Part shown: piece by piece, positions 3,371-62,765 of the stretch
Position numbering within the stretch: position 1 is the first letter of the stretch
How the letters are laid out: the number at the start of each line of letters is the position of its first letter
DNA from: Vicinamibacterales bacterium
GTDB taxonomy: Bacteria > Acidobacteriota > Vicinamibacteria > Vicinamibacterales > 2-12-FULL-66-21
Direction: 5' to 3'
Assembly (NCBI GenBank): GCA_035495555.1
Contig: DATJFQ010000098.1
Location: 12,325 to 76,324, forward strand
Length of the DNA stretch: 64,000 nucleotides
Position numbers and translations under genes: made by a program
The notes under the pieces: model-generated
Seen by the model: the letters and a program-made list of their open reading frames with translations, nothing else
The model's database searches: none
Told to the model about the DNA's origin: nothing

Positions 3371-3798
3371 ACATCTATCTTGCGTGCACGGTGCGCGGCG
3401 ATCGCGATGCCATTCACGCGCTGCGGCGGCTTGCGGACGACCTCGAAGCCGCCGGGCACGTCGTCCTCACGCGGCACCTGCTCGAAGACGAGGTCGACGT
3501 CGCGGAAGCCAAACTCTCGGAGCGACAGGTCTACGAGCGGGACATCGAGTGGCTGAACGCCGCGGAGGTGCTGATCGCCGACGCGTCCGGTTCGAGCTTC
3601 GGCGTCGGCTTCGAGGTCGGCTGGGTACTGGCGAACTCCGGTCGAACGAGCCAGCGGGTCCTGCTGCTCTACCGTGCGGATCGCCGCGATCGCATTTCGC
3701 GGCTCATCGTCGGCAACGCGCACCCGAACTGCACGGTGCTTCCCTATTCAGACGCGACCGAGCTTGTGAAGCGTGTGCGAGGGGCGATAGGGGACGGA

Positions 3799-3804
<6 letters not shown>
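3367..3804 (+). CDS. 2'-deoxynucleoside 5'-phosphate N-hydrolase-like protein (DNPH1/Rcl, nucleoside 2-deoxyribosyltransferase superfamily)
   Basis: ATG at 3367 overlaps the dut stop (ATGA). MNIYLACTVRGDRD ... YERDIEWL ... VLIADASGSSFGVGFEVGW matches the Rcl signature (YFCGSIRGGRED, EQDL.WL, AEVTQPSLGVGYELG), including the Tyr/Asp/Glu catalytic positions. Confidence 0.75.
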
Positions 3805-3847
<43 letters not shown>

Positions 3848-4070
3848 AGACAGGCGCCGCGGGAAGCGATGGGGGCGAGGACGGGGCGCCCCGGTTCGCG
3901 CGGAGGCGGCTCCTCGTCGACGCGTCTTTCTCGCCGCCGAGCACGAACTGGGTCCGCCTCCGCCGCGAAGCGGCTTCGGCGAGATCGCGCCGGAGCGCAG
4001 CTGGAGCCTCTGACTGCGCGAAGGCGGAGCTGGCCGAGCAGGGGCCCCATCGCCGGCGGTGCTGCCAGCC

Positions 4071-4150
4071 GACGAACGATGTCCGAAGTTCGATGAACGT
4101 TGATCGGCAATCGCCCATCGTCCATCGGTCATCGTCTATCTTCTATCGAT
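4071..4150. repeat. heptamer-based imperfect hairpin (CGATG-type units followed by CATCG-type units)
   Basis: GACGAACGATGTCCGAAGTTCGATGAACGTTGATCGG is followed by CCCATCGTCCATCGGTCATCGTCTATC..ATCGATC. The CGATG/CATCG cores are complementary. The element abuts the RND gene stop. Confidence 0.55.
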
Positions 4151-11201: not shown

Positions 11202-11312
11202 GTCAACTACGCAATTTCACAACTACCAACTACACAAGGCGCGATCGCTTGGAAGTTGTCGCCTTAGTTGGTAGTTGCCGTGAGTAGTTGGTAGTTGCGA
11301 AGTTATGTAGTT
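11202..11312. repeat. inverted heptamer-repeat hairpin (CAACTAC/CCAACTA arm versus TAGTTGG/TAGTTGC arm)
   Basis: Left arm GTCAACTACGCAATTTCACAACTACCAACTACACAA. Right arm ..TTAGTTGGTAGTTGCCGTGAGTAGTTGGTAGTTGCGAAGTT.. Lies between convergent gene ends and overlaps the S9 peptidase stop. Confidence 0.8.
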
Positions 11313-14163
11313 ATCGCGCCCCACCCTTCTGTTGCGACGTCGTCTTCGACTTCGCCGGCTCGTAGAGCGGCGTCACATCGCGCCGTCCGCGCTCGAGATA
11401 GGGCACGCCCTTCTCCATCCACTCCGGCTTCGATTTCCCGAGCAGGTAGTAATCGAAGAACTCGTCGAGGTGGACGGTCCAGTACTTCTGGTTGTCGCGA
11501 TCCCGCAGCCCGTGCTTTTCGCCGTTGAAGCTGAACATGTACGCCTCTTTGCCGAGGCGCCGCATCGCGCTGAAGAACTCGATGCCCTGATACCACGGCA
11601 CGGCGTCGTCTTCGTCGTTATGGATGGTCAGGTACGGCGTGTGAATCTTCTCCACCCAGAAGATTGGCGAGTTCTCGATGTACTGCAGCGGATCCACCCA
11701 GGGCGGCCCGCCGATGCGGGACTGCGTCTTCTCGTACTGGAACGCGCGTGACATGCCGGTGCCCCAGCGGATGCCGCCATACGCACTGATCATGTTCGCA
11801 ACCGATGCTCCCGCTTCGACGGCGCGGAACAGGTCGGTTCGCGTGATCAGATACGTGATCTCGTAACCGCCCCAACTGTGTCCCTGAATCCCGATTCGCT
11901 TCGGGTCGACGAATCCTTTCGCCACGACCGACTGCACGGCCGGAATGACACACTTGAACGCGCTCTCGCCCGGATAGCCGATGTCGTACACGATGTCGGG
12001 CTCGAGGACGACGTAGCCGTTGCTGACGTAGCGCGTGATGTTGATGCTCGTCCCGGGCGACGGCGCGTGATACGAGTGCAGTCCGTTGGTCAATTCCTCG
12101 TAGATGTAGACCATCAGCGGGTACTTCTTCGAGGCATCGAAGCCGTCCGGTTTGAACAAGAGGCCGCGGAGCGGCTTCCCGTCGGCGTTCACGTAGTCGA
12201 CGAGTTCAGCGGTGCCCCACGCGTACTGCGATTGCTGCGGGTTGGCGTCGGTCACCTTCTTCATGTTCGCGAAGCTGCCGTCGCTCACCCACAGGTCCGG
12301 AAATTCTTCGAAGCGCGAGAGGCTGTAGACGAGCACGTCGGCGTTCTTTGCTTTCGTCGGGCGGCCGAACTGCTTGTCGAGCATCACGACTTTTTCGGGC
12401 GCGGCGGATTGGGCGAGCGTGATCCGGTAGAAGCCGGTCGCCTTCGTGCGGTCGTCGGTAGTGTCGAGGAGCAGCGGGCGATCGGGTGGAATGCTCCGCT
12501 CGTCTGGATCGAGGCGCTGGTACCGGAACACGAGGCTCTGCTGGCGTCCGAAGCCTTGCGTCACCATGTATGCGCCCGTTCCGTCGGGTTTAACCTCCCA
12601 GATGTCGTACCGGTCGTACAGCAGGACGGACTTGTCGCCGGCGGTCCATCCGGCCACGCCGTACGGCGAGGGCTGACCTGGCGTATCCCATGTCTCGTCT
12701 TCGAAGCTGACCTTCAGCCCTCGTGTGAGTGGAACCGCGGTGGTCGTTCCGACCTTCTGAGCGAACCACGCGTGGCTTTCGTCGGAGTACCAGAGGATGT
12801 AATTGCCGCCGGGCGACAGCATCGGCGTGAAGTGCTGATGGGACAGAACGCGTGTCTTCGCGCCCGTGTTCAGGTCGACGACGTACGCGTCGTTGTAATC
12901 GCCGTCCCACGAGATGAGCTGCTGATACGGCACATCCGACTCGCCGAGCGCCACTGGCGCGCCGTCGGTCACGCGCAAATCCGGCATCTCCGGGGATGCG
13001 AGCTGCATGAACTTGCGATCCTTCATCCGCACGACGGCCTGGTAACTGCGCTTCTTCTCTTCGTCGGCGCGGACGCGCTGCATCGGCTGGAGCAGCGGAT
13101 CCTTGTAGTTCCAGATGTCGACCTTGACGGGATCAGGCGCATCTTCGGGCTGCGGAGCGGGAACAGGTGCGGTGCCGAAGAAGAGATGCGCGCCGGTCTT
13201 CGAGAACGACACCTTGCCGTTTTCGCTGACGCTCATGCCTTCCGGCATGCCGGCCGTACGGGCGGTCACGAGCGCGGCAGCGCCGCTGTCGGCCCTCGTC
13301 CAGTAGTACAGCTTGAACGGGCTCGGGTCGTTCCGGTAGTCGTCGCGATCGCTCACGAAGGCGAGCTGCTTGCCCGCATCGTCGAACGCGAAATCCTTGT
13401 AGTGGCCGATGCCGCGGGCCAGCGGAGTCGTGCTGCCCTCCGCCGTGCGCACGAATGCGCCGTCGGCGTCGCCCGACTTCGAAGATGTCCCGTAGGCGAG
13501 CATCGAGCCGTCCTTCGACCATGTGTATTCGACGACGTCGGGGATTGTCGTCGACGTGCCGGACTGCAGGTCGCGAACGATCAACTCGGTGCCCGCGTCC
13601 TTTTTCTTCTCTTTCTTTTTCGGCGCGGTGGCGTCAGGCTCTTTCTTCTCCGCCTCCTTGTCGTCGTCTTTTTTCGCAGTGGCCTTCGCGGGTTCGAGGA
13701 GGTAGGCCACCGAACGAGACCCGTCCTCGGCGACCTTGAAGCTCTTGACGCGATCGGCGGTAAAGACCTGCCCGTTCGCCAGGGACATCACGCCCATGCC
13801 GCTTTTGGGCTGATCCTCAGGCTTCTTCTTCTCCTTTTTCGCCTTGTCGAGGTCGGCCCGAGTTGGCGAGACCGCAAACACCACGAAGCGGCCGTCCGCG
13901 GTAATCACAGGAGACTTGCCGCGCGGCGCGCGGTACTCGGCGCCCGTTTTCAGGTTGCGCGCCACGAGTTCGCCGTCGGCTTCCTCGGGCACCAGTGCGT
14001 AGACGAGCCACGTCCCATCGCGCGAGAGCTGGGTGTTTTGAATCGAACGCCAGCCGTCGTACACGTCGTACGAGAGCGGCCGTTTCTGCTGCGCCAGGGG
14101 ATGGGCGGCAGCGCAGATGGTGAGGACGATGCCAAGCAGGAGCCGGCGGGGGCGTTGAAGCAT
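11311..14163 (-). CDS. S9 prolyl-oligopeptidase-family serine peptidase with N-terminal beta-propeller region
   Basis: 950 aa with a signal peptide. The C-terminal catalytic domain has GHSWGGY, DEDDAVP and GEKHGL (Ser/Asp/His). Confidence 0.9.
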   Translation of the reverse strand: MLQRPRRLLLGIVLTICAAAHPLAQQKRPLSYDVYDGWRSIQNTQLSRDGTWLVYALVPEEADGELVARNLKTGAEYRAPRGKSPVITADGRFVVFAVSPTRADLDKAKKEKKKPEDQPKSGMGVMSLANGQVFTADRVKSFKVAEDGSRSVAYLLEPAKATAKKDDDKEAEKKEPDATAPKKKEKKKDAGTELIVRDLQSGTSTTIPDVVEYTWSKDGSMLAYGTSSKSGDADGAFVRTAEGSTTPLARGIGHYKDFAFDDAGKQLAFVSDRDDYRNDPSPFKLYYWTRADSGAAALVTARTAGMPEGMSVSENGKVSFSKTGAHLFFGTAPVPAPQPEDAPDPVKVDIWNYKDPLLQPMQRVRADEEKKRSYQAVVRMKDRKFMQLASPEMPDLRVTDGAPVALGESDVPYQQLISWDGDYNDAYVVDLNTGAKTRVLSHQHFTPMLSPGGNYILWYSDESHAWFAQKVGTTTAVPLTRGLKVSFEDETWDTPGQPSPYGVAGWTAGDKSVLLYDRYDIWEVKPDGTGAYMVTQGFGRQQSLVFRYQRLDPDERSIPPDRPLLLDTTDDRTKATGFYRITLAQSAAPEKVVMLDKQFGRPTKAKNADVLVYSLSRFEEFPDLWVSDGSFANMKKVTDANPQQSQYAWGTAELVDYVNADGKPLRGLLFKPDGFDASKKYPLMVYIYEELTNGLHSYHAPSPGTSINITRYVSNGYVVLEPDIVYDIGYPGESAFKCVIPAVQSVVAKGFVDPKRIGIQGHSWGGYEITYLITRTDLFRAVEAGASVANMISAYGGIRWGTGMSRAFQYEKTQSRIGGPPWVDPLQYIENSPIFWVEKIHTPYLTIHNDEDDAVPWYQGIEFFSAMRRLGKEAYMFSFNGEKHGLRDRDNQKYWTVHLDEFFDYYLLGKSKPEWMEKGVPYLERGRRDVTPLYEPAKSKTTSQQKGGAR

Positions 14164-14194: not shown

Positions 14195-14273
14195 CAACTC
14201 CCAACGCCCAACGCCCAATATGAATTGCGAATTGAATTGGAAGTTGGGAATTGGGAATTGGGAATTGGGAATT
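14195..14273. repeat. inverted heptamer-repeat hairpin, TTGGGAR family (archetype)
   Basis: Left arm CAACTCC CAACGCC CAACGCC CAATAT. Right arm ..TTGGAAG(TTGGGAA)4TT. Located between the ABC-operon 3' end and the S9 peptidase start. Confidence 0.9.
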
Positions 14274-17545: not shown

Positions 17546-18384
17546 CGACCCACCGTCAGCAGGGCGCGGCGGCGCAAGATGGTCCATCCCGCGATCGCGC
17601 TGGCCGCCAGGCCCACCGGGACCGCAAGCGCCACACACCGAAGCGCAATCGCGGGCGTAACCCGGACGAAGACGAGCGCGGTGTCATACCGCCATTGAAA
17701 AAACCGGTTGAAGACGGGTTCCGCCGCCCGCGCGAACAGAACCCCGAACGCCGCACCCGCGACCGCAATCAGCGCGCCTTCGACGAGCACCTGCGCGATG
17801 AGCCGCTGCTTCGTCAGGCCAATCAATCGCAGCGTCGCGACCGTCTCGCGCCGCTCGTCGACGAGCATCACCATCAGCGCGAGGAGGAATGCGCCGCTGC
17901 CGAAGACCGTGACCATCGCAATCGCGAGGTGAAATCGATCGAGGACGGCGAACGTGGACGTCCGCTCGTCGGGCGCGGCCGTCGACTTCGCGGTCAATCC
18001 GGGCAGACGGCGCTCTACATCGGATGCAAACCCCGCGGCGTCCTCGCGGTCGCGCAGTTCGACGTTGATGCTCGTGAGCGAAGACGACGGGAGGCGGTCC
18101 TCGAGCGCGGCCGCGTCCGGCAGATGCACGCGCACTTCGAGCCGCTCCTGGGCAAACCGCATGGGATCCGGTGTCGGCTCGTAAACGCCGACGATGCGGA
18201 ACGGGCGCGCAGCCGTGCCGGCAGCATCGGACGACAGCTCCACGGTTTGACCGACGGCGAGGTGCTCACGCTCCAGCAGTTGACGCGAGACGAGCACATC
18301 CGCAGGCGCCGGAGCCGCCGCGAGGGCGGTCCACGTCAGCAGCACGACGGCGAGGAAGGAGGCGGTCCGACGCATCCTTCTCAT
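17542..18384 (-). CDS. ABC transporter permease, short FtsX family
   Basis: N-terminal hydrophobic helix, a short periplasmic domain (VLVSRQLLEREHLAVGQTVEL) and an FtsX 3-TM module (..LRLIGLTKQRLI..). Start is uncertain: ATG 18384, ATG 18375 or GTG 18402. Confidence 0.8.
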   Translation of the reverse strand: MRRMRRTASFLAVVLLTWTALAAAPAPADVLVSRQLLEREHLAVGQTVELSSDAAGTAARPFRIVGVYEPTPDPMRFAQERLEVRVHLPDAAALEDRLPSSSLTSINVELRDREDAAGFASDVERRLPGLTAKSTAAPDERTSTFAVLDRFHLAIAMVTVFGSGAFLLALMVMLVDERRETVATLRLIGLTKQRLIAQVLVEGALIAVAGAAFGVLFARAAEPVFNRFFQWRYDTALVFVRVTPAIALRCVALAVPVGLAASAIAGWTILRRRALLTVGR

Positions 18385-18445
18385 CGTATCTGGAGCGCGC
18401 ACTCCAGTTGCGCGATCGGCTGTCGATCACCACAATACGGACACC

Positions 18446-19630
18446 ATGAAGCTGCTGCTGTTCGGGGTCGTGCTCGTCGCGATCGCCCAATCGACGCCAT
18501 CGCCGCGGCCGCGCGCGAGAGATCTCGGCATCGCGCCCGGAACGTTTCCTCCGGGGCCGCTCAACGCGATCACCGACGTCAGCGGCGTCACCGTGGGCCA
18601 GACGACCGTCACCGAAGGCGACACCGTCCGCACCGGCGTCACCGCGATCGTGCCCCACGGCGGCAATCTCTTTCAGGAGAAGGTGCCCGGCGCCGTCTTC
18701 GTGGGGAACGCCTTCGGCAAGCTGGCGGGCTCGACGCAGGTGAACGAGCTCGGCACGATCGAAACCCCCGTCGTCCTCACCAACACGCTGTCGGTCGGCA
18801 CGGCGGTCGACGCGGTCGTCCGCTGGACGCTGGCGCAGCCGGGGAACGAACACGTGCGCTCGGTCAACGCCCTCGTCGGCGAAACGAACGACGGCACGCT
18901 CAACGACATCCGCGGTCTTCACGTCACCGGCGACCACGTGCGGGCCGCGATCACCGGTGCGAAGAGCGGCCCCGTGGACGAAGGCGCCGTCGGGGCGGGC
19001 ACCGGCACGGTGGCGTTCGGCTGGAAGGGCGGCATCGGCACGTCGTCGCGCCTCGTGCGCGTCGGTTCCGACACGTGGACCGTCGGTGTGCTCGTGCAGA
19101 GCAATTACGGCGGACGCCTGGTCATCAACGGTGTTCCCATCTGGCGCGAGTTGAACCCGAACCAGAACGAGAACCCGAACCCGAACGAGAACCCGAACCC
19201 CGAACCGCGAACCCGAAACAGAACCTCCGCACCGCCGAACCCCCGCACCCCCGAACCGCGCGTGTCACCCGACGGTTCCTGCATGATTGTGGTGGCGACC
19301 GACGCGCCGCTGGACGCACGGAACCTGCAGCGGCTCGCCGCGCGTGCCGTGTTCGCGCTGGCGCGCACCGGATCGACCTATTCCAACGGCAGCGGCGACT
19401 TCGCCATCGCGTTCTCGACCGCGCCGTCGCTCCGCGTAACGAGCGCGCGCGGTCCGCAGACGCGGACCGTCCTGCCGACCGACGACGTGTCGCCGTTGTT
19501 CGAGGGCGTCATGGATGCGACCGAAGAAGCCGTGGACAACTCCCTTCTGCAAGCGACCGACGTCACCGCAAACGGGCGGACCGTTCGGGCGATCCCGATT
19601 GACCGGCTGAAAGCGCTGCTGCAGCGATGA
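18446..19630 (+). CDS. DmpA/BapA-like P1 (S58) family aminopeptidase, self-processing Ntn type
   Basis: Signal peptide, NAITDV.GV.VG, and the predicted autoprocessing site DG|SCMIVVATDAPL. Confidence 0.85.
   Translation: MKLLLFGVVLVAIAQSTPSPRPRARDLGIAPGTFPPGPLNAITDVSGVTVGQTTVTEGDTVRTGVTAIVPHGGNLFQEKVPGAVFVGNAFGKLAGSTQVNELGTIETPVVLTNTLSVGTAVDAVVRWTLAQPGNEHVRSVNALVGETNDGTLNDIRGLHVTGDHVRAAITGAKSGPVDEGAVGAGTGTVAFGWKGGIGTSSRLVRVGSDTWTVGVLVQSNYGGRLVINGVPIWRELNPNQNENPNPNENPNPEPRTRNRTSAPPNPRTPEPRVSPDGSCMIVVATDAPLDARNLQRLAARAVFALARTGSTYSNGSGDFAIAFSTAPSLRVTSARGPQTRTVLPTDDVSPLFEGVMDATEEAVDNSLLQATDVTANGRTVRAIPIDRLKALLQR
19153..19260. repeat. in-frame 6/7-nt tandem repeat tract (GAACCC/GAACGA/GAACCA ...) inside the DmpA-like CDS
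   Basis: Eight clean hexamers degenerate into heptamer-like CGAACCG/CCGCACC units. The tract encodes NPNQNENPNPNENPNPEPRTRNRTSAPPNPRTPEPR. Confidence 0.85.
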
Positions 19631-19663: not shown

Positions 19664-19705
19664 CGTCGTCCATCGTCCATCGTCCATCGTCCATCGTCCA
19701 TCGTT
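19664..19705. repeat. single-orientation tandem heptamer array CGTCGTC(CATCGTC)4CATCGTT
   Basis: Six contiguous 7-nt units immediately upstream of the GGAGG-ATG of the VPS10 gene. Confidence 0.9.
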
Positions 19706-42199: not shown

Positions 42200-42282
42200 C
42201 CACTCCAACTCCCAATTCCCAACTCCCAATTCGCAATTAGATTCAGCAATCTTGGGAGTTGGGAGTTGGGAATTGGGAGTTC
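42200..42282. repeat. inverted heptamer hairpin, TTGGGAR family
   Basis: CCACTCCAACTCCCAATTCCCAACTCCCAATTCGCAATT ... AATCTTGGGAGTTGGGAGTTGGGAATTGGGAGTTC. Between convergent genes; the right arm encodes the C-terminal tail of the minus-strand gene. Confidence 0.9.
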
Positions 42283-48200: not shown

Positions 48201-48349
48201 CAACTCCCAACACCCAATTCCCAATTCCCAAGGGTTCGAACTCCCAAGTCCCGGTCCCGGGCTTGGGAGTTTTTGTATCCGCTGGAAATGGGCGGTTAGG
48301 ATTTATTCGGTTCGGGAGCTGGGAATTGGGAGTTGGGAGTTGGGAGTTG
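48201..48349. repeat. nested TTGGGAR-family element: outer inverted arms enclosing a terminator-like hairpin
   Basis: Outer arms CAACTCCCAACACCCAATTCCCAATTCCCAA (48201-31) and TTCGGGAGCTGGGAATTGGGAGTTGGGAGTTGGGAGTTG (48311-49). Confidence 0.85.
48239..48275 (+). terminator. rho-independent terminator candidate for htrA
   Basis: 10-bp perfect stem AACTCCCAAG/CTTGGGAGTT with inner CCCG/CGGG pairing, followed by TTTTTG. Confidence 0.6.
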
Positions 48350-50769: not shown

Positions 50770-50839
50770 GCACCGAGCACCAAGCACCCCGCACCGAGCA
50801 CGAAGCACCGCGCACGAAGCACCGCGCGCGAAGCGCGCC
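50770..50839. repeat. single-orientation tandem heptamer array (GCACCGA GCACCAA GCACCCC GCACCGA GCACGAA GCACCGC GCACGAA GCACCGC GCGCGAA GCGCGCC)
   Basis: Ten contiguous 7-nt units read directly between the two genes. Confidence 0.9.
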
Positions 50840-52799: not shown

Positions 52800-54098
52800 A
52801 TGACGCCGATCGCCTACATCGAGGACATCGCCCGCTTCGAAGGACAGACCGTCCGTCTTCGCGGATGGCTCCACAATCGGCGGTCGAGCGGAAAGATCCA
52901 CTTCCTGACGCTCCGCGACGGGACGGGCTTCATCCAGTGTGTCATGGTGAAAAAGCAGGTCGGCGACGAGCAGTTCACGCGGGCCGACCACCTGGCGCAG
53001 GAGAGCGCCATCATCATCGAGGGCAGCGTGCGCGCCGATTCGCGCGCGCCGGGCGGGTATGAGATCGACGTCGCCAGCCTCGAGGTGGTCTCCGAGTCGA
53101 AGGACTTCCCCATCACGCCGAAGGAGCACGGGGTCGACTACCTCATGGATCGGCGGCACCTGTGGATCCGCTCGCAGCGCCAGGCTGCGATCCTGCGCGT
53201 GCGTCACGAGGTGATCAATGCGGTCCGCGATTTCTTTAACAGCCGCGGGTTCGTCCTCGCCGATACGCCGATCTTCACGCCAGCCGCGTGCGAAGGCACC
53301 ACGACGCTGTTCCCGGTCCAGTACTTCGACGACGCAACCGCGTACCTGACGCAGAGCGGGCAGCTCTACAACGAAGCAAACGCGATGGCGCTCGGCCGGG
53401 TGTATGCGTTCGGCCCGACGTTCAGGGCGGAAAAATCCAAGACGCGGCGCCATCTCACCGAGTTCTGGATGGTCGAGCCCGAGATGGCGTACGCGACGCT
53501 TGACGACGTGATGGATCTGGCCGAGGGGCTGATCGTGTCGGTCGTGGGGCGCGTCCTGGAGACGCGTAAGCACGAACTGCAGGCGCTCGAACGCGACACC
53601 ACGAAGCTCGAACGCGTGCAGTCGCCGTTTCCGCGGATCTCGTACGACGACGCGGTCGAGATCCTGACGAAGAAGGGGCTGCCGTTCGAATGGGGCGGCG
53701 ACTTCGGGGCCCCCGACGAGACGGCGCTGTCGGAGGACTTCGACCGCCCGGTCTGCGTCCATCGGTACCCATCGAAGGTGAAGGCGTTTTACATGAAGCC
53801 GGATCCCGACCGGCCCGAGGTGGCCCTCGGCGTCGACGTGCTCGCGCCGGAAGGCTACGGCGAGATCATCGGCGGCGGCGAGCGCATCTCCGACTACGAC
53901 CTGCTGCTGCAGCGGATCAAGGAACACGATCTGCCGCAGGAGGCCTTCGAGTGGTACCTCGACCTGCGCCGCTACGGCACCGTGCCGCACGGCGGCTTCG
54001 GCATGGGGATCGAGCGCTGCGTGTCCTGGATCTGCGGGTTGGAACACCTGCGGGAAGCCATTCCCTATCCACGAATGTTGTACAGGCTGTATCCGTGA
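52800..54098 (+). CDS. asnS: asparagine--tRNA ligase
   Basis: Collinear with Thermus-type AsnRS: [75 protein letters not shown]. Confidence 0.93.
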
Positions 54099-55522
54099 GC
54101 AAGGTAGGCTTCGTCTCCCTCGGTTGTCCAAAGAACCTCGTCGACGGCGAGGTAATGCTGGGGCTCGCGCAGCAGGCGGGTCATGAGATCACGGCGTCGG
54201 CACAGGACGCCGACGTGATTGTCGTGAACACGTGCGCCTTCATCGACAAGGCGAAGCAGGAGTCGATCGACACGATCCTCGAAATGGCGCAGCAGAAGCG
54301 CGACGGCTCCTGCAAACGCCTCGTTGTCACGGGGTGCCTGGCCGAGCGCTATCGCGACGAACTGAAGAAGGAGATCGGCGAAATCGACGCCGTCCTCGGG
54401 ACGGGCGAAGTCGAAGGGATCATCGAAGCGCTCAGTCCGAGGGACGATGCTCGAGGTTCGATGGACGATGGCCGTCGCCCGATGACCTTTCACAAGAGGA
54501 GCATCGCCACTCGATCATCGAGCATCGAACATCGAACATCGCCCATCGACCATCGATCACTACCCACATACATCTACGACGCGGACACGCCGCGCGTCAT
54601 CACCACGCCGAAGCACTTCGCGTACGTCAAAATCGGCGAAGGCTGCGACTACACCTGCGCCTTCTGCATCATCCCGACCCTCCGCGGCAAGTACCGCAGT
54701 CGCACCGCAGACTCCATCGTCCGCGAGGCGCAATCACTGGCGGAGCGCGGCGTCAGGGAACTTCTGCTGATTTCTCAGGACACGACGTTCTATGGGATCG
54801 ATCGCGGTGAACGCGGAGCACTCGCGCGCCTGCTGCGGCGGCTGAATGCCATCGACGGACTGGCGTGGATTCGGCTCCTCTATCTCTATCCGACCACCAT
54901 CACCGACGATGTCCTGGACGCGATGGCGGAGTGCGAGAAGGTGTGCCGCTATGTCGACCTGCCGCTGCAGCACGCCTCTGCCGCGGTGCTGAAGCGGATG
55001 CGGCGTCCCGGCAACCGGAAGACGTATGACGCGCTGCTCTCCCGGATCCGCGCACGCGTCCCCGGCGTCACATTGAGGACGACGTTCATCGTCGGCTTTC
55101 CCGGCGAGACCGAAACCGACTTCGGCGAGCTCGAGTCGTTCGTCGAGGACACGCGGTTCGACCACATCGGCGTGTTCACCTATTCCCACGAGGAAGGCAC
55201 GCGGGCCTTTGCGGCGGCAGACGACGTAGCCGCGCCCAGCAAACGGGCACGCCGCAACCGGCTGATGAAGCGGCAGCAGCGGATCGTGAACACGGCGCAC
55301 GAAAGCCGGATCGGTTCGCAGGTGCGGGTGCTGGTCGACGGCCCGTCCGCCGAGCATGAGTTGGTGCTCCAAGGCCGCCTGGAAGGGCAGGCGCCCGACA
55401 TTGATCCGGTGGTTTATCTCACCGATTGCGATCCTGCTGAGGTTGCGCCCGGGGACCTCATCAATGCACGCCTGCTCGCCTCCAAAGGCTACGACCTCGT
55501 CGCCGCGCCGCTGCGGCCCTGA
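54095..55522 (+). CDS. rimO: ribosomal protein S12 methylthiotransferase
   Basis: GTG overlaps the asnS stop (GTGA). [21 protein letters not shown], radical-SAM [16 protein letters not shown]-like C-terminus. Contains a repeat-derived insert. Confidence 0.9.
54443..54558. repeat. inverted heptamer hairpin (CGATG arm / CATCG arm) in-frame inside rimO
   Basis: GACGATGCTCGAGGTTCGATGGACGATGGCCGTCGCCCGATGACC ... GCATCGCCACTCGATCATCGAGCATCGAACATCGAACATCGCCCATCGACCATCGATC. Confidence 0.8.
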
Positions 55523-55594
55523 CGAGGCGACGGGGAGGTCGCGGCTACGGTCGTGCTGGTCGCGGCATCGTTTAGGCGTGCGTCTTCGCGGTGG

Positions 55595-55600
55595 TATACT
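55595..55600 (+). promoter_or_regulatory. candidate -10 box TATACT for the rimP-nusA-infB cluster
   Basis: TATACT with TTTAGG 17 nt upstream, located in the rimO-rimP gap. Confidence 0.3.
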
Positions 55601-55630
55601 GATTGGTGCCGTTTGCAGGGGGAAAGTCCT

Positions 55631-55660
55631 AGTGGGCCGGTGCCCACTTTTTGTTTTTCA
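55631..55660 (+). terminator. canonical intrinsic terminator/attenuator hairpin
   Basis: AGTGGGC-CGGT-GCCCACT (7-bp stem, tetraloop) followed by TTTTGTTTTT, a striking T-run in a GC-rich genome. Confidence 0.6.
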
Positions 55661-56176
55661 GGGGTATTCAGTACGCCAGAGCCGCGCGCGATCGGCCGAT
55701 TCAGGCAAGCCGCTGAACGGGTGGCGAACAGCCACGGGCTGGAAATCTTCGACGTCCAGCTCCGGCGTGAACCGATAGGGATGGTGCTCCGGGTGGTGAT
55801 CGATCGGCCGGACCGGGGCAGCATCGAACGGCCGGAGGACAGCGTCGGCATCGAGGAGTGCCAGCGCGTCAGCCAGGACCTGAGCGCGCTCCTCGACGTC
55901 GAGGACGAATTCGGCGAGCAGGCGCTGGGCGACACGTACACGCTCGAAGTCTCATCGCCGGGGCTCGATCGGCCGCTGCGGCACGAGGCCGATTTCCGCC
56001 GCTTCACGGGGCGGCTGGCAAAGATCGTCTCCTCGGAGCCGATCGAACGACAGAGCGCCTTCGCCGGCAGGATCGCGGGGATCGAGGACGGCGCGGTCGT
56101 CCTCCAGCAGGGGCGACGGACGCACAAGGTGCCGCTCGACAAGATCAAGCGCGCGCACCTGGACGTTGAGTTCTGA
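55640..56176 (+). CDS. rimP: ribosome maturation factor RimP (start codon uncertain)
   Basis: ..GLEIFDVQL...LRVVIDRP..V.IEECQRVSQDLSALLDVED......Y.LEVSSPGLDRPL. Candidate starts are GTG 55640 (inside the hairpin loop), GTG 55553 and GTG 55721. Confidence 0.8.
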   Translation: MPTFCFSGVFSTPEPRAIGRFRQAAERVANSHGLEIFDVQLRREPIGMVLRVVIDRPDRGSIERPEDSVGIEECQRVSQDLSALLDVEDEFGEQALGDTYTLEVSSPGLDRPLRHEADFRRFTGRLAKIVSSEPIERQSAFAGRIAGIEDGAVVLQQGRRTHKVPLDKIKRAHLDVEF

Positions 56177-60312: not shown

Positions 60313-60346
60313 GGAATTGGGAGTTGGGAATTGGGAGTTGGGAGTT
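60313..60346. repeat. single-arm TTGGGAR heptamer array (GGAATTGGGAGTTGGGAATTGGGAGTTGGGAGTT)
   Basis: Four GGG runs spaced by 4 nt, in the infB-rbfA gap. The last GGGAG lies 6 nt before the rbfA GTG. Confidence 0.85.
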
Positions 60347-60351
60347 AAGAA

Positions 60352-60768
60352 GTGACCTCCAACAGACCCGAGCGTATCGGAGAAGCGGTCCGCGACGAGA
60401 TCTCCCTGATGCTCGCGCGTGAGGTCCACGATCCCGGCATCGGGTTCGTGACGCTGACGCGGGTGAAAGTCACGCCGGACCTGCAGATCGCGCGCGTCTA
60501 CTACACGACGCTGGGGGACGAGAAGGCCCAGCGCGAGACGGCAAAGGCGCTTCGCCGGGCCGCGCCGTTCCTGCGCCGGCAGCTCGGCCAGAAAATCCGG
60601 CTCCGGCGCGTTCCCGAAATCGAGTTCCACTACGACGAATCAATCGCGCACGCCGATCGCGTGGAACGGATCCTTCACGATCTCGAAGAAGAGCGGGCGG
60701 CGCGCGCCGCCGAGACCCGCGACACAGCCGGCGACGCCTTACGCGATGACCATCCCGACGACGAGTAG
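60352..60768 (+). CDS. rbfA: ribosome-binding factor A
   Basis: R.ERIGEAVRDEIS.ML..EV.DP..GFVT.T.V.V..DL..A.VYY...G; RR.P.I.F..D. Confidence 0.9.
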   Translation: MTSNRPERIGEAVRDEISLMLAREVHDPGIGFVTLTRVKVTPDLQIARVYYTTLGDEKAQRETAKALRRAAPFLRRQLGQKIRLRRVPEIEFHYDESIAHADRVERILHDLEEERAARAAETRDTAGDALRDDHPDDE

Positions 60769-61747
60769 CCATACAGTCAACGAGATCCGCGACGCGATTC
60801 TTGCCCGCCGCCGATTCCTGATCACCTCCCACGCAAGACCCGACGGCGATTCCATCGGATCTCAGATGGCAATGGCCTATGCGCTCGAGGCGCTCGGCAA
60901 GGAAGTCCGCCTGGTCAACGCCGACCCCGCGCCCGAGCATTATCTGGATTTTCCCGGCGTCGAGCGGATCGAGATCGCTCGCCAGCTGCTCGAGCGCGAC
61001 GCCGACGCCCTCATCGTGATGGAATCGAGCGATCTCAACCGCACCGGCGTCGCGGGCCTCGAAGGGCGCTTCACGATCAATATCGACCACCACCAGGGCA
61101 ACACGGCGTACGGCGATCTGAACTGGCTCGACGAATCCGCCGCGGCCTGCGGCGAGCTGGTGTTCGAGCTGATCGGGTCGCTCGGGATCCCGCTCACGGT
61201 CGAGATCGCGACGCACATCTACCTGGCCATCCTGACCGACACCGGCTCGTTCCACCACTCCAACATCACGCCGAAAACGTTCGACATCTGCCGCCAGACG
61301 GTCGCGGCAGGCGTGAACCCGGCGGCCATGGCCCGGCGCGTGTTCGACAGCAACAGCTTCGGAAAATTGAAGTTGATCGGCGCGCTGCTCGACGAGATGG
61401 ACCTCCTGGACGATGGGCGGCTGGCCGTGCTGTACCTGAACGACGACATCCTCAACGCGACGAACACGACCTACAACGACACGGAAGGCCTCATCAACCT
61501 GCCCCTGACCGCACGGGAGATCCAGGCCGTCGCTTTCTTCAAGGTCGGAGCCGACGGCGACATCCGCGTCAGCCTCCGCTCGAAGTACGACGTCGATGTC
61601 CGGGCCGTTGCGAGTCTCCATGGCGGGGGCGGACACAAGAATGCGGCAGGGTTCACGGTCAGGGGACCGCTTCCCGACGTGCGCCCGGTGATCATCCGCG
61701 AAATCGAACAGGCCATCGCTGCGGGGATGCAAACGAGGCCTGAGTAA
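60746..61747 (+). CDS. nrnA: DHH/DHHA1 phosphoesterase (NrnA-type oligoribonuclease / pAp phosphatase)
   Basis: ITSHARPDGDSIGS, IDHH, TDTG.F, GGGHKNAAG. Sits in the conserved position after rbfA and overlaps rbfA by 23 nt. Confidence 0.85.
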   Translation: MTIPTTSSHTVNEIRDAILARRRFLITSHARPDGDSIGSQMAMAYALEALGKEVRLVNADPAPEHYLDFPGVERIEIARQLLERDADALIVMESSDLNRTGVAGLEGRFTINIDHHQGNTAYGDLNWLDESAAACGELVFELIGSLGIPLTVEIATHIYLAILTDTGSFHHSNITPKTFDICRQTVAAGVNPAAMARRVFDSNSFGKLKLIGALLDEMDLLDDGRLAVLYLNDDILNATNTTYNDTEGLINLPLTAREIQAVAFFKVGADGDIRVSLRSKYDVDVRAVASLHGGGGHKNAAGFTVRGPLPDVRPVIIREIEQAIAAGMQTRPE

Positions 61748-61829
61748 ATTCCCAATTCCCAACGCCCAAACGAGCCTGGTTTGGACGTTCGATTTGGGAG
61801 TTGGAGTTGGGAGTTGGAAGTTGGGAATT
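61746..61829. repeat. inverted heptamer hairpin, TTGGGAR family
   Basis: AAATTCCCAATTCCCAACGCCCAAACG ... CGATTTGGGAGTTGGAGTTGGGAGTTGGAAGTTGGGAATT. Spans the nrnA stop to the truB start. Confidence 0.85.
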
Positions 61830-62765
61830 GACGGCGCCCTGATTGTCGATAAGCCGTCTGGACCCACCTCTCACGACGTCGTCGCCGTCGCGAGGCGCGC
61901 GCTGAAGATTCGCCAGATCGGGCACACGGGGACGCTCGACCCGCTCGCGACAGGCGTGCTCGTCCTGCTGGTGGGCCGCGCCACACGCCTCTCGCAATTC
62001 ATCGTCCACGACCGGAAAGAGTACGTCGCGGAGATCCGCCTGGGCGTCGCCACGGCGACTTACGATGCGGAGGCGCTCCACGATAATTCCCAACTCCCAA
62101 CTCCCAACTCCCAAATCGATCAATCTGGCCAGCCCCGAACAAATCGAATTGGGAATTGGGAATTGGGAATTGGGAGTTTGGACGAGGTCCTCGATGATTT
62201 CCGCGGGACCTTTCTCCAATCGCCTCCGCCATTCTCCGCAAAGAAAGTCGACGGCCGGCGCGCATACGAGCAGGCCCGGAGGGCCCGGCCGGTCGAAATG
62301 CAGCCTGTTCGGGTCACCGTACACGAACTGGAGCGGCTTCAGTCGCCGGACCCCAGGCTGATTCGGCTTCGGATGGTGGTGAGCGCCGGGTTTTACGTTC
62401 GCTCTTTGGCCCACGTTCTCGGGCAGCGGCTCGGCTGCGGCGCGCACCTCGAGACGTTGCGGCGGACGCGATCCGGGCCCTTTTCGATCGACGACAGCAT
62501 CACGCTCGACACGCTCGTCAGCGGTGCGCCGACCCTCGTGCCGATGAACGGCCTGCTTCAGCACATCCCCGCCGTCACCCTTTCGGACGAGGGTCTGCGG
62601 CGGGCTTCGCGCGGGAACGTCATCAGTCCTGGGCACATTACCAACTCCGCCGTCGAAAAGACCGAGGATGGTCGGATCCGGTTGCTCTCGCCTGATGGCG
62701 AGCTCGTCGCGATTGGGGTCCGGGACGCCCGCGCGTTTTTGCACCCGCAAGTTGTGTTGGTGTAA
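61821..62765 (+). CDS. truB: tRNA pseudouridine(55) synthase (start uncertain: TTG 61821 or TTG 61794, both inside the repeat arm)
   Basis: IVDKPSGPTSHDVV, GHTGTLDPLATGVL (catalytic Asp), Y.AEIRLG..T.T.DAE, F.G...Q.PP.FSA.K, LGCGAHL..LRRT. Contains a repeat insert. Confidence 0.9.
   Translation: MGIDGALIVDKPSGPTSHDVVAVARRALKIRQIGHTGTLDPLATGVLVLLVGRATRLSQFIVHDRKEYVAEIRLGVATATYDAEALHDNSQLPTPNSQIDQSGQPRTNRIGNWELGIGSLDEVLDDFRGTFLQSPPPFSAKKVDGRRAYEQARRARPVEMQPVRVTVHELERLQSPDPRLIRLRMVVSAGFYVRSLAHVLGQRLGCGAHLETLRRTRSGPFSIDDSITLDTLVSGAPTLVPMNGLLQHIPAVTLSDEGLRRASRGNVISPGHITNSAVEKTEDGRIRLLSPDGELVAIGVRDARAFLHPQVVLV
62085..62178. repeat. TTGGGAR-family inverted hairpin in-frame inside truB
   Basis: AATTCCC(AACTCCC)3AAATCGAT - 22-nt loop - ATCGAATT(GGGAATT)3GGGAGTT. 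About 31 of 36 arm positions are complementary. Confidence 0.9.

Follow-up and report, generated by a model that had tools for sequence, protein, structure and literature searches.

The stretch analysed here (the window) comprises 64,000 nt of contig DATJFQ010000098.1 from a Vicinamibacterales bacterium, a soil acidobacterium. Its G+C content is 65.8%, and its nearest relatives are metagenome-assembled genomes (MAGs) of Vicinamibacterales, Acidobacteriota subgroup 6. It carries an intact rimO gene, within which two facing arrays of 7-nt units form the arms of a hairpin while the reading frame stays open. The gene, its domains and the parts of the hairpin are as follows.

54095–55522, + strand: rimO coding sequence, 475 aa, intact; the GTG start overlaps the asnS stop codon
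Protein residues 3–102, 179–349 and 406–470: the UPF0004, Radical_SAM and TRAM_2 Pfam domains of RimO
54438–54486, + strand: left arm, seven CGATG-type units in exact 7-nt register, encoding a 7-aa period and pairing with the right arm in the minimum-free-energy fold
54479–54501, + strand: hairpin loop, the codons of the conserved linker motif P129-M-T-F132-H-K-R-S
54502–54557, + strand: right arm, eight CATCG-type units in exact 7-nt register
54449–54568, + strand: protein segment 119–158, of low confidence in the AlphaFold2 model (predicted local distance difference test, pLDDT, below 50) and predicted to be disordered

The gene product scores 511 bits against TIGR01125 (cut-off 357) and has the architecture that defines RimO, with UPF0004, Radical_SAM and TRAM domains, three N-terminal cysteines and a CxxxCxxC motif. 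A first-pass annotation, made from the letters alone, had described an in-frame, hairpin-forming pair of heptamer arrays between the N-terminal domain and the radical-SAM motif, and had named an inactive gene as a finding that would speak against it. Instead, the frame is open from end to end across both arrays, and the six Fe-S cluster cysteines (C11/C47/C81 and C184/C188/C191) are kept and are invariant in the family alignment. The linker is also longer than usual, as had been suspected. About 34 residues are extra relative to Thermotoga maritima RimO (PDB 4jc0), query residues 115→166 aligning with 113→130, and the distance from the third N-terminal cysteine to the first radical-SAM cysteine is 103, compared with a median of 76 (interquartile range 74–79) in 143 diverse RimO representatives. 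Among 120 Vicinamibacterales proteins the median is 103 (range 85–139). In other phyla the linker likewise varies in length and is occasionally long and non-repetitive, so that the site is generally permissive. In the AlphaFold2 model (60-sequence alignment, predicted template modelling score 0.81), pLDDT falls below 50 only at residues 119–158, a coil that joins helix 108–113 to strand 175–182, and at the short segment 186–192. The enzyme is otherwise intact, and the insert lies in a surface linker that is predicted to be disordered. Since eight independent database members of the same cluster (ENA, JGI, NCBI, Logan) carry an identical linker peptide, the arrays are not an assembly artefact.

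Both arms are head-to-tail series. The cores of the left arm are CGAGG/CGATG/CGAGG/CGATG/CGATG/CGTCG/CGATG (unit starts 54438, 54445, ... 54480), the last unit being at the same time CCG ATG AC of the P-M-T codons. Those of the right arm are CATCG/ACTCG/CATCG, the third in six copies (starts 54502, 54509, ... 54551), and Tandem Repeats Finder reports 54502–54556 as period 7 with 7.9 copies. As an inverted repeat, 54438–54470 and 54516–54548 are 82% complementary over 33 nt, and a longer 41-nt pair is 73% complementary. The RNA of 54430–54575 folds with −54.0 kcal/mol, against −38.7 ± 3.6 in 200 dinucleotide shuffles (z −4.25, 0/200 as good), and the DNA of the same segment with −32.9 kcal/mol (z −4.57). 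Register, folds and open frame confirm the arrays in rimO. Their unit type is that of the intergenic arrays at 3799–3845 and 4071–4150, as the first-pass annotation had stated: CATCGNNCATCGNNCATCG, with at most one mismatch, has 18 matches in the window where 0.05 are expected, and all of them fall at 3799–3845, 4077–4134, 19664–19703 or in rimO, the third of these places being additional to those named earlier. The stem at 54438–54557 is not an intrinsic terminator, no U-tract following it (53800–55800 holds one terminator, at 55631–55658); a promoter search at the hairpin gave one weak match (54489–54518), at chance level; and neither an Rfam family nor a tRNA was found when the window was scanned for them.

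The linker was followed through the order in about 230 Vicinamibacterales RimO sequences, with linker DNA for about 150 loci. For this purpose 120 homologues (72–100% identity) were aligned, and DNA was taken from 74 (61 + 13) GTDB or contig loci and from 80 metagenome loci. Measured from 'VLGTGEV' to 'PTYIY', the linker varies between 35 and 104 aa, at this exact site in all three sets. This is the opposite of an aperiodic linker conserved in length and at the protein level, which the first-pass annotation had named as a refuting result: nucleotide periodicity and complementarity recur, while the arm peptides differ between lineages. A significant hairpin is present at this site in roughly 40% of the loci with DNA (z < −3 at 23/61 loci in the first set and 28/75 in the metagenome replicate), and z exceeds −1 at 28/61 and 25/75, respectively.

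What stays constant is the centre. Even the shortest, arm-less linkers (loci L066, L040, L039 and L108) keep the motif P-[LMV]-T-[FL]-[FHY], of which P129 and F132 are at least 90% conserved in the family alignment; in one subclade IPLLRSNGEP stands in its place. The third codon positions of the motif differ between loci by synonymous changes (CCG/CCT/CCA/CCC, ACG/ACC/ACT/ACA, TTT/TTC; 39 loci), and this free variation shows the loop motif to be constrained at the protein level. In every hairpin-bearing locus the motif forms the loop, with arms on both sides, and each arm must therefore by itself be a multiple of 3. Two parts of the earlier description fall away here. The insert is not a discrete single insertion, because its arms flank the codons of an ancestral motif (P129-M-T-F132-H-K) that arm-less relatives also possess, and it is neither recent nor peculiar to the window, since both spacer positions hold variable arrays across the order. 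The rimO linker is a long-lived, order-wide repeat hot spot and not the site of a one-off event.

The 7-nt unit is specific to the lineage (CGATGGN, GGGATCC, CTCGGGG, GGGGATT and others), as in the following loci.

L028: GGGRCTC/GAGYCCC, −118 kcal/mol, z −9.0
L067: GGGGATT/AATCCCC, z −8.3
L058, L042 and L015: GGGATCC-type units
L011: GCGACTC/CAGTCGC
L025: GCGATTC/GAACCGC
L037: GGGTGTC

Families of units are mildly clustered on the RimO core, with within-family median identities of 0.80–0.84 (minima 0.71–0.78) against 0.76 overall. By a strict criterion applied to 71 loci, arrays occupy both arms in 21, the left arm only in 4, the right arm only in 10 and neither in 36. Differences in copy number make the arms unalignable, and for this reason complementarity was assessed by permuting arms between loci rather than by covariation column by column. 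The duplex between the two arms of one locus has a mean energy of −49.7 kcal/mol, against −39.1 ± 0.9 for permuted partners (71 loci; z −12, 0/20000 as low). Because a set of three heptamers spans 21 nt, the length of 7 codons, the linkers also contain 7-aa peptide repeats such as DGRYPMA, HRPSPID and TLHPPTS. It might be supposed that selection acts on this repeat peptide itself, perhaps for a linker that is charged and disordered and binds RNA, with the nucleotide symmetry incidental, and the R/S/D/H/P-rich repeats, the disorder of the linker and the role of the enzyme in modifying the ribosome would suit that idea. It is nevertheless very unlikely: the arm peptides change from lineage to lineage (among them DGRYPMA, EVRGPRSE and the NSQLPTP type) while the complementarity is conserved, linkers as short as 35 aa occur in the same order, and the permutation test makes chance reverse-complementarity of two arrays very improbable.

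A selected structure in the rimO mRNA is a second explanation. The hairpin could cause ribosome pausing at the domain boundary for folding or Fe-S loading, or serve as an RNase III or stabiliser element through which the expression of rimO is set, duplication of heptamers being an easy way to lengthen a stem. The conserved position at that boundary across the order, the co-varying arms, the strong fold and the like hairpins found just past stop codons elsewhere, one of which encloses an intrinsic terminator, all agree with it. Such a hairpin in the sense RNA is expected to show an excess of G·U pairs on the sense strand. The bias found is the opposite. Isolated stem mismatches, read on the sense strand, are G·T 18 against A·C 38 in the GTDB set and G·T 18 against A·C 63 in the metagenome set, that is, G·T 36 against A·C 101 in about 135 loci combined (p 2.5e-8 against 1:1 and 6e-4 against a composition-based expectation). 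The antisense strand also folds better than the sense strand, with means of −68.9 and −63.1 in the GTDB set and −71.0 and −64.0 in the metagenome set. A G·U excess as the mark of selection on the sense mRNA was accordingly rejected, the contrary bias having been replicated in the second set; and although the arms co-vary, they do not show the compensatory pairs with tolerated G·U of a structured cis-regulatory RNA. The sense linker is poor in T (14%), and the bias is probably due to this depletion of T in the coding strand, not to an antisense function: coding pressure (G+C at third positions, hydrophilic residues, no stops) would turn A:T pairs into A·C, pairing being sacrificed to coding. 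The A·C bias counts against a tuned mRNA structure while being compatible with a role at the DNA level. Further points against mRNA structure are the roughly 40% of lineages without a significant fold, the one-armed arrays, the missing U-tract after the stem, and a comparable hairpin in truB (described below), of which the antisense form is the more stable by 15 kcal/mol. On balance, selection on the mRNA is rather unlikely.

The arrays differ even between close relatives of the window. A RimO with 83% identity (L082) has the same CGATGG/CCATCG hairpin; one with 79% (L083) has 13 near-perfect right-arm units where the window has 8, with a decayed left arm; and one with 89% (L081) no longer has the CATCG arms but, on the right side only, CGCCTCC ×5. 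Within 90%-identity clusters, alleles lie exactly 7 aa (21 nt, three units) apart, and the difference falls inside the arms. Examples are P0016 (485 aa) and P0143 (478 aa), with multiple cluster members each, and P0104 (509 aa) and P0184 (502 aa); P0142 occurs on 14 contigs and P0143 on 11. Such polymorphism of copy number among close relatives is typical of heptamer simple-sequence repeats, and array turnover in rimO is fast and stepwise. In the length changes that survive, each arm still has a length divisible by 3 and contains no stop codon. When metagenome contigs were scanned with exact flanks, no length variants of the same species turned up, and a protein-guided metagenome scan yielded 80 loci, all in frame and none of them from the window's own species. 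Two metagenome contigs (L084 and L085) terminate within or beside the rimO hairpin, assemblers breaking at these repeats.

Changes in copy number of this kind raise the question of a contingency locus, in which a change by one or two 7-nt units in either direction would shift the frame and switch RimO, and hence methylthiolation of S12 D88, off or on. A 7-nt unit inside a reading frame is inherently prone to frameshifts, L083 with its 13 near-perfect units especially; the 21-nt polymorphism within species demonstrates that copy number changes; and heptanucleotide phase variation is known in hmw of Haemophilus influenzae (PMC12721329). Against this, all of the ~165 assembled rimO loci are in frame, although assemblies and gene callers would under-report out-of-frame alleles. 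The short proteins P0190 and P0153, considered as frameshifted OFF alleles, were discarded, their contigs stopping inside the hairpin, and the truncated cluster members that were examined are contig ends rather than frameshifts. In the window itself the units are interrupted, only two adjacent ones being identical, and slippage should be suppressed for that reason. A phase-variable switch is unlikely.

Heptamer arrays are not confined to rimO. With arrays defined as chains of at least three identical 5-mers at fixed spacing, the window contains 19 regions of spacing 7, compared with 0–3 for each of the other spacings from 4 to 12, and 958 kb of the order contain 177 such regions, compared with at most 40 for any other spacing. 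Arrays of period 7 are thus enriched about 5-fold across the order, mostly as intergenic hairpins, and the period-specific excess that marks heptamer simple-sequence repeats is present in the window and in the order alike. About one third of the 177 regions are in the rimO linker, which makes up some 1.3% of the DNA; the rest are found repeatedly at orthologous intergenic sites, namely upstream of rimO, in the gap from rimO to rimP, and around positions 12300–12400 of the loci, which probably lie after infB. The window has eight intergenic sites with hairpin pairs, most of which begin no more than about 20 nt from a stop codon. Units at a given site are common to related genomes, and different sites of one genome differ in unit; homogenisation of units throughout a genome is ruled out by the latter. 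The principal arrays outside rimO are listed here.

62088–62175, + strand: truB hairpin, in-frame TCCCAAC ×4 / GAATTGG ×4, in the TruB_N domain (truB coding sequence 61794–62765)
3799–4150, no strand assigned: intergenic relative of the CGATG family, CGATGNN ×7 (3799–3845) facing CATCG-type units (4071–4150) at the base of a fold of ~365 nt
19664–19704, + strand: unpaired CATCGTC ×5.6 array in a 5′ leader, of the same family as the rimO arms
11204–11297: intergenic hairpin pair, CAACTAC/GTAGTTG
14195–14273: intergenic hairpin pair, CCCAACG/TTGGGAA
29765–29843: intergenic hairpin pair, ATTGCAG/CTGCAAT
42205–42281: intergenic hairpin pair, CTCCCAA/TTGGGAG

The truB hairpin bears out the earlier remark that a second gene has an in-frame insert of another unit family. 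Across the order the same TruB position is hypervariable and holds other units, as in the relatives L086, L087 and L088; L087 has an array of 11-nt units, and L088 is lopsided, with 10 units on the left and 2 on the right.

The two genes, and the three further sites in the window that share the unit family of rimO, invite comparison with a mobile palindromic element inserted in frame, such as a Rickettsia palindromic element (RPE) or a miniature inverted-repeat transposable element (MITE), as the first-pass annotation implied. Like such an element, the insert is palindromic, keeps the frame and occupies a loop in which a functional protein tolerates it. There are no full-length consensus copies with defined ends, however, since only a 5-nt core is shared with 3799–4150 and 19664–19704. 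Nor is the element present or absent as one block: each arm varies in length on its own, and some loci have one arm only. Moreover, its centre is ancestral RimO peptide that is also found without arms, and the units follow phylogeny at a given site while differing between sites of one genome. Insertion of a mobile element is the least likely of the explanations weighed here, and highly improbable. Expansion of repeats that tolerates coding DNA, for which the first-pass annotation had also allowed, remains the best interpretation.

Several other features of these arrays may be recorded. The region 3785–4150, just past the stop codon of an AcrB-family gene, forms a giant fold of −208 kcal/mol with a 220-nt GC-rich interior and no Rfam match. 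At 42205–42281 one arm carries the unit variants in the mirror-image order of the other. The array at 60313–60346 is of TTGGGAG type, containing GGGAG, which resembles a Shine-Dalgarno sequence, and abuts the rbfA start (GTG at 60352); another of this type occupies 61747–61830, where the truB start and its ribosome-binding site probably lie within the right arm of a hairpin. Arrays placed in this way would allow sequestration of the translation initiation regions of rbfA and truB. At 50770–50834 an unpaired GCACCNA heptamer array separates the NTP-transferase and APH genes, in a position conserved in L083 (4679–4730). At 19153–19257, in the open reading frame 18284–19627, the Peptidase_S58 domain is longer by about 34 residues; in-frame GAACCC/GAACCCCC arrays (periods 6, 8 and 18) at this place make up a third coding insert, without an inverted partner. 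The DNA between rimO and rimP (55590–55660; 9530–9600 in L083) contains a TATACT box and, after it, a conserved leader hairpin, AGTGGGCCGGTGCCCACT, with a T-run. This hairpin is nearly identical in L083, in which RimO is 79% identical, and box and hairpin are likely the promoter and attenuator of rimP-nusA-infB. The intrinsic terminator of htrA in L083 (2985–3160) is plain, with the stem AACTCCCAAGCCC...GGGTTTGGGAGTT and a T-run behind it. Within the window (48201–48349) the same terminator, stem AACTCCCAA...TTGGGAGTT with its T-run, is nested in outer CTCCCAA/TTGGGAG arrays, and the two states together suggest that arrays grow from pre-existing stem sequence.

The arrays in rimO are probably locally expanding, hairpin-paired heptamer simple-sequence repeats that are tolerated in a permissive linker, the peptide being a by-product. 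Heptamers would start in the two short unconstrained spacers that flank the conserved linker strand, from short stem or codon sequence already present there, of which CCG ATG AC of P-M-T, itself a CGATG unit, may be an example. Replication slippage, rather than insertion of a mobile element, would then expand and contract them locally, as the 21-nt alleles and the one-sided expansions suggest. Complementarity of the arms could be renewed by templated repair or strand switching within the hairpin, or else maintained by selection on DNA structure. The former corresponds to Ripley's quasi-palindrome model, in which an imperfect hairpin is corrected in one arm with the other arm as template, and which would keep arms complementary without selection; the model was described for single mutations in short quasi-palindromes and not for the maintenance of long arrays. 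Purifying selection on RimO would demand only that the reading frame be kept, that no stops arise and that the sequence be hydrophilic and poor in T, leaving the encoded peptide as something merely tolerated. The ancestral peptide in the loop, and units shared by site and not by genome, support a local origin.

Some observations weigh against this explanation. Slippage and templated repair are read from allele patterns rather than directly evidenced, and the out-of-frame alleles that slippage predicts number 0 among the ~165 assembled loci, a count that under-reporting by assemblies and gene callers would lower. Neutral repeats usually decay, yet arrays and unit families persist down to about 71–78% identity of the RimO core, a persistence that could mean selection for structure. 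Two independent genes, rimO and truB, behave alike at fixed positions, and the explanation does not account for a unit of 7 nt, a length not divisible by 3, being used even within genes. An active, heptamer-specific 'stem-expansion' process that makes hairpin-paired arrays and keeps renewing them, or selection for the DNA structures that result, acting at the same rimO and truB codons since the order arose, is possible, if doubtful. A tolerated mutational by-product is the leading explanation.

That position is conserved while sequence turns over, in two housekeeping genes throughout an order of abundant soil bacteria, was not to be expected, and it offers a tractable handle on the heptamer excess. 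A conserved protein scaffold with hundreds of natural alleles provides a comparative system for separating mutational drive from selection, and here the length of a protein linker evolves in quanta of 7 aa set by the arithmetic of a DNA repeat. There is also a practical warning, for such sites break assemblies, mislead gene calling and alignment, and fragment or truncate rimO calls in Acidobacteriota MAGs. If stem expansion or selection for structure should prove correct, rimO and truB would be a natural, tractable system for studying the heptamer excess and modular 7-aa linkers, and the arrays might make RimO and TruB phase-variable.

Heptameric repeats are known from other bacteria, among them the short tandemly repeated repetitive (STRR) sequences of cyanobacteria, GGGNATC of Xanthomonas and Nostoc (PMC4692102) and TAACTGA of Beggiatoaceae (PMC4679880). 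Such repeats are over-represented in many bacteria, mostly intergenic and without an accepted mechanism of origin; the papers report their under-representation in coding DNA and describe neither paired arrays nor Acidobacteriota. The arrays described here resemble them in their tandem 7-nt units, strong period excess, many copies, mostly intergenic location near stop or start codons and variable copy number, and the units GGGATCC, GGGGATT and TTGGGAR resemble the GGGNATC type. They differ in that they usually form inverted hairpin pairs, that many unrelated units coexist, and that they lie in frame in conserved genes at positions fixed across the order.

In-frame palindromic repeats in protein-coding genes were reportedly described, as the RPEs, by Ogata and colleagues in 2000. 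RPEs are dispersed copies of a consensus of 100–150 bp, inserted as one block. As with RPEs, palindromic DNA stands here in frame in surface loops of functional proteins, and the peptide is tolerated rather than needed; unlike them, the arrays have no consensus element, and their tandem-heptamer arms flank an ancestral peptide and evolve locally. RPEs are among the subjects reviewed in PMC10969869. Extragenic palindromes of the repetitive extragenic palindromic (REP) class, including bacterial interspersed mosaic elements (BIMEs) and REP doublets forming hairpins (REPINs), are treated in PMC3733652 and PMC3116915, and like the arrays here they are abundant, form hairpins, lie behind genes and may serve as terminators or stabilisers. 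REPs have units of 20–40 nt with a conserved GTAG/CGTC tag, are mobilised by REP-associated tyrosine transposases (RAYTs) and are extragenic, while the arrays here lack the tag, have arms of tandem units and are also intragenic. With contingency loci they share a unit that is not a multiple of 3, in or near a gene, and a polymorphic copy number, but the gene here is a housekeeping RNA- or protein-modification enzyme, the arrays are paired as hairpins, and the ~165 assembled loci include no OFF alleles. A search of the literature found no description of hairpin-paired heptamer arrays, of coding arrays conserved in position, or of either in Acidobacteriota. Overall, the arrays of the window are a variant that combines the unit length and genomic habit of the heptamer repeats with an in-frame tolerance like that of the RPEs.

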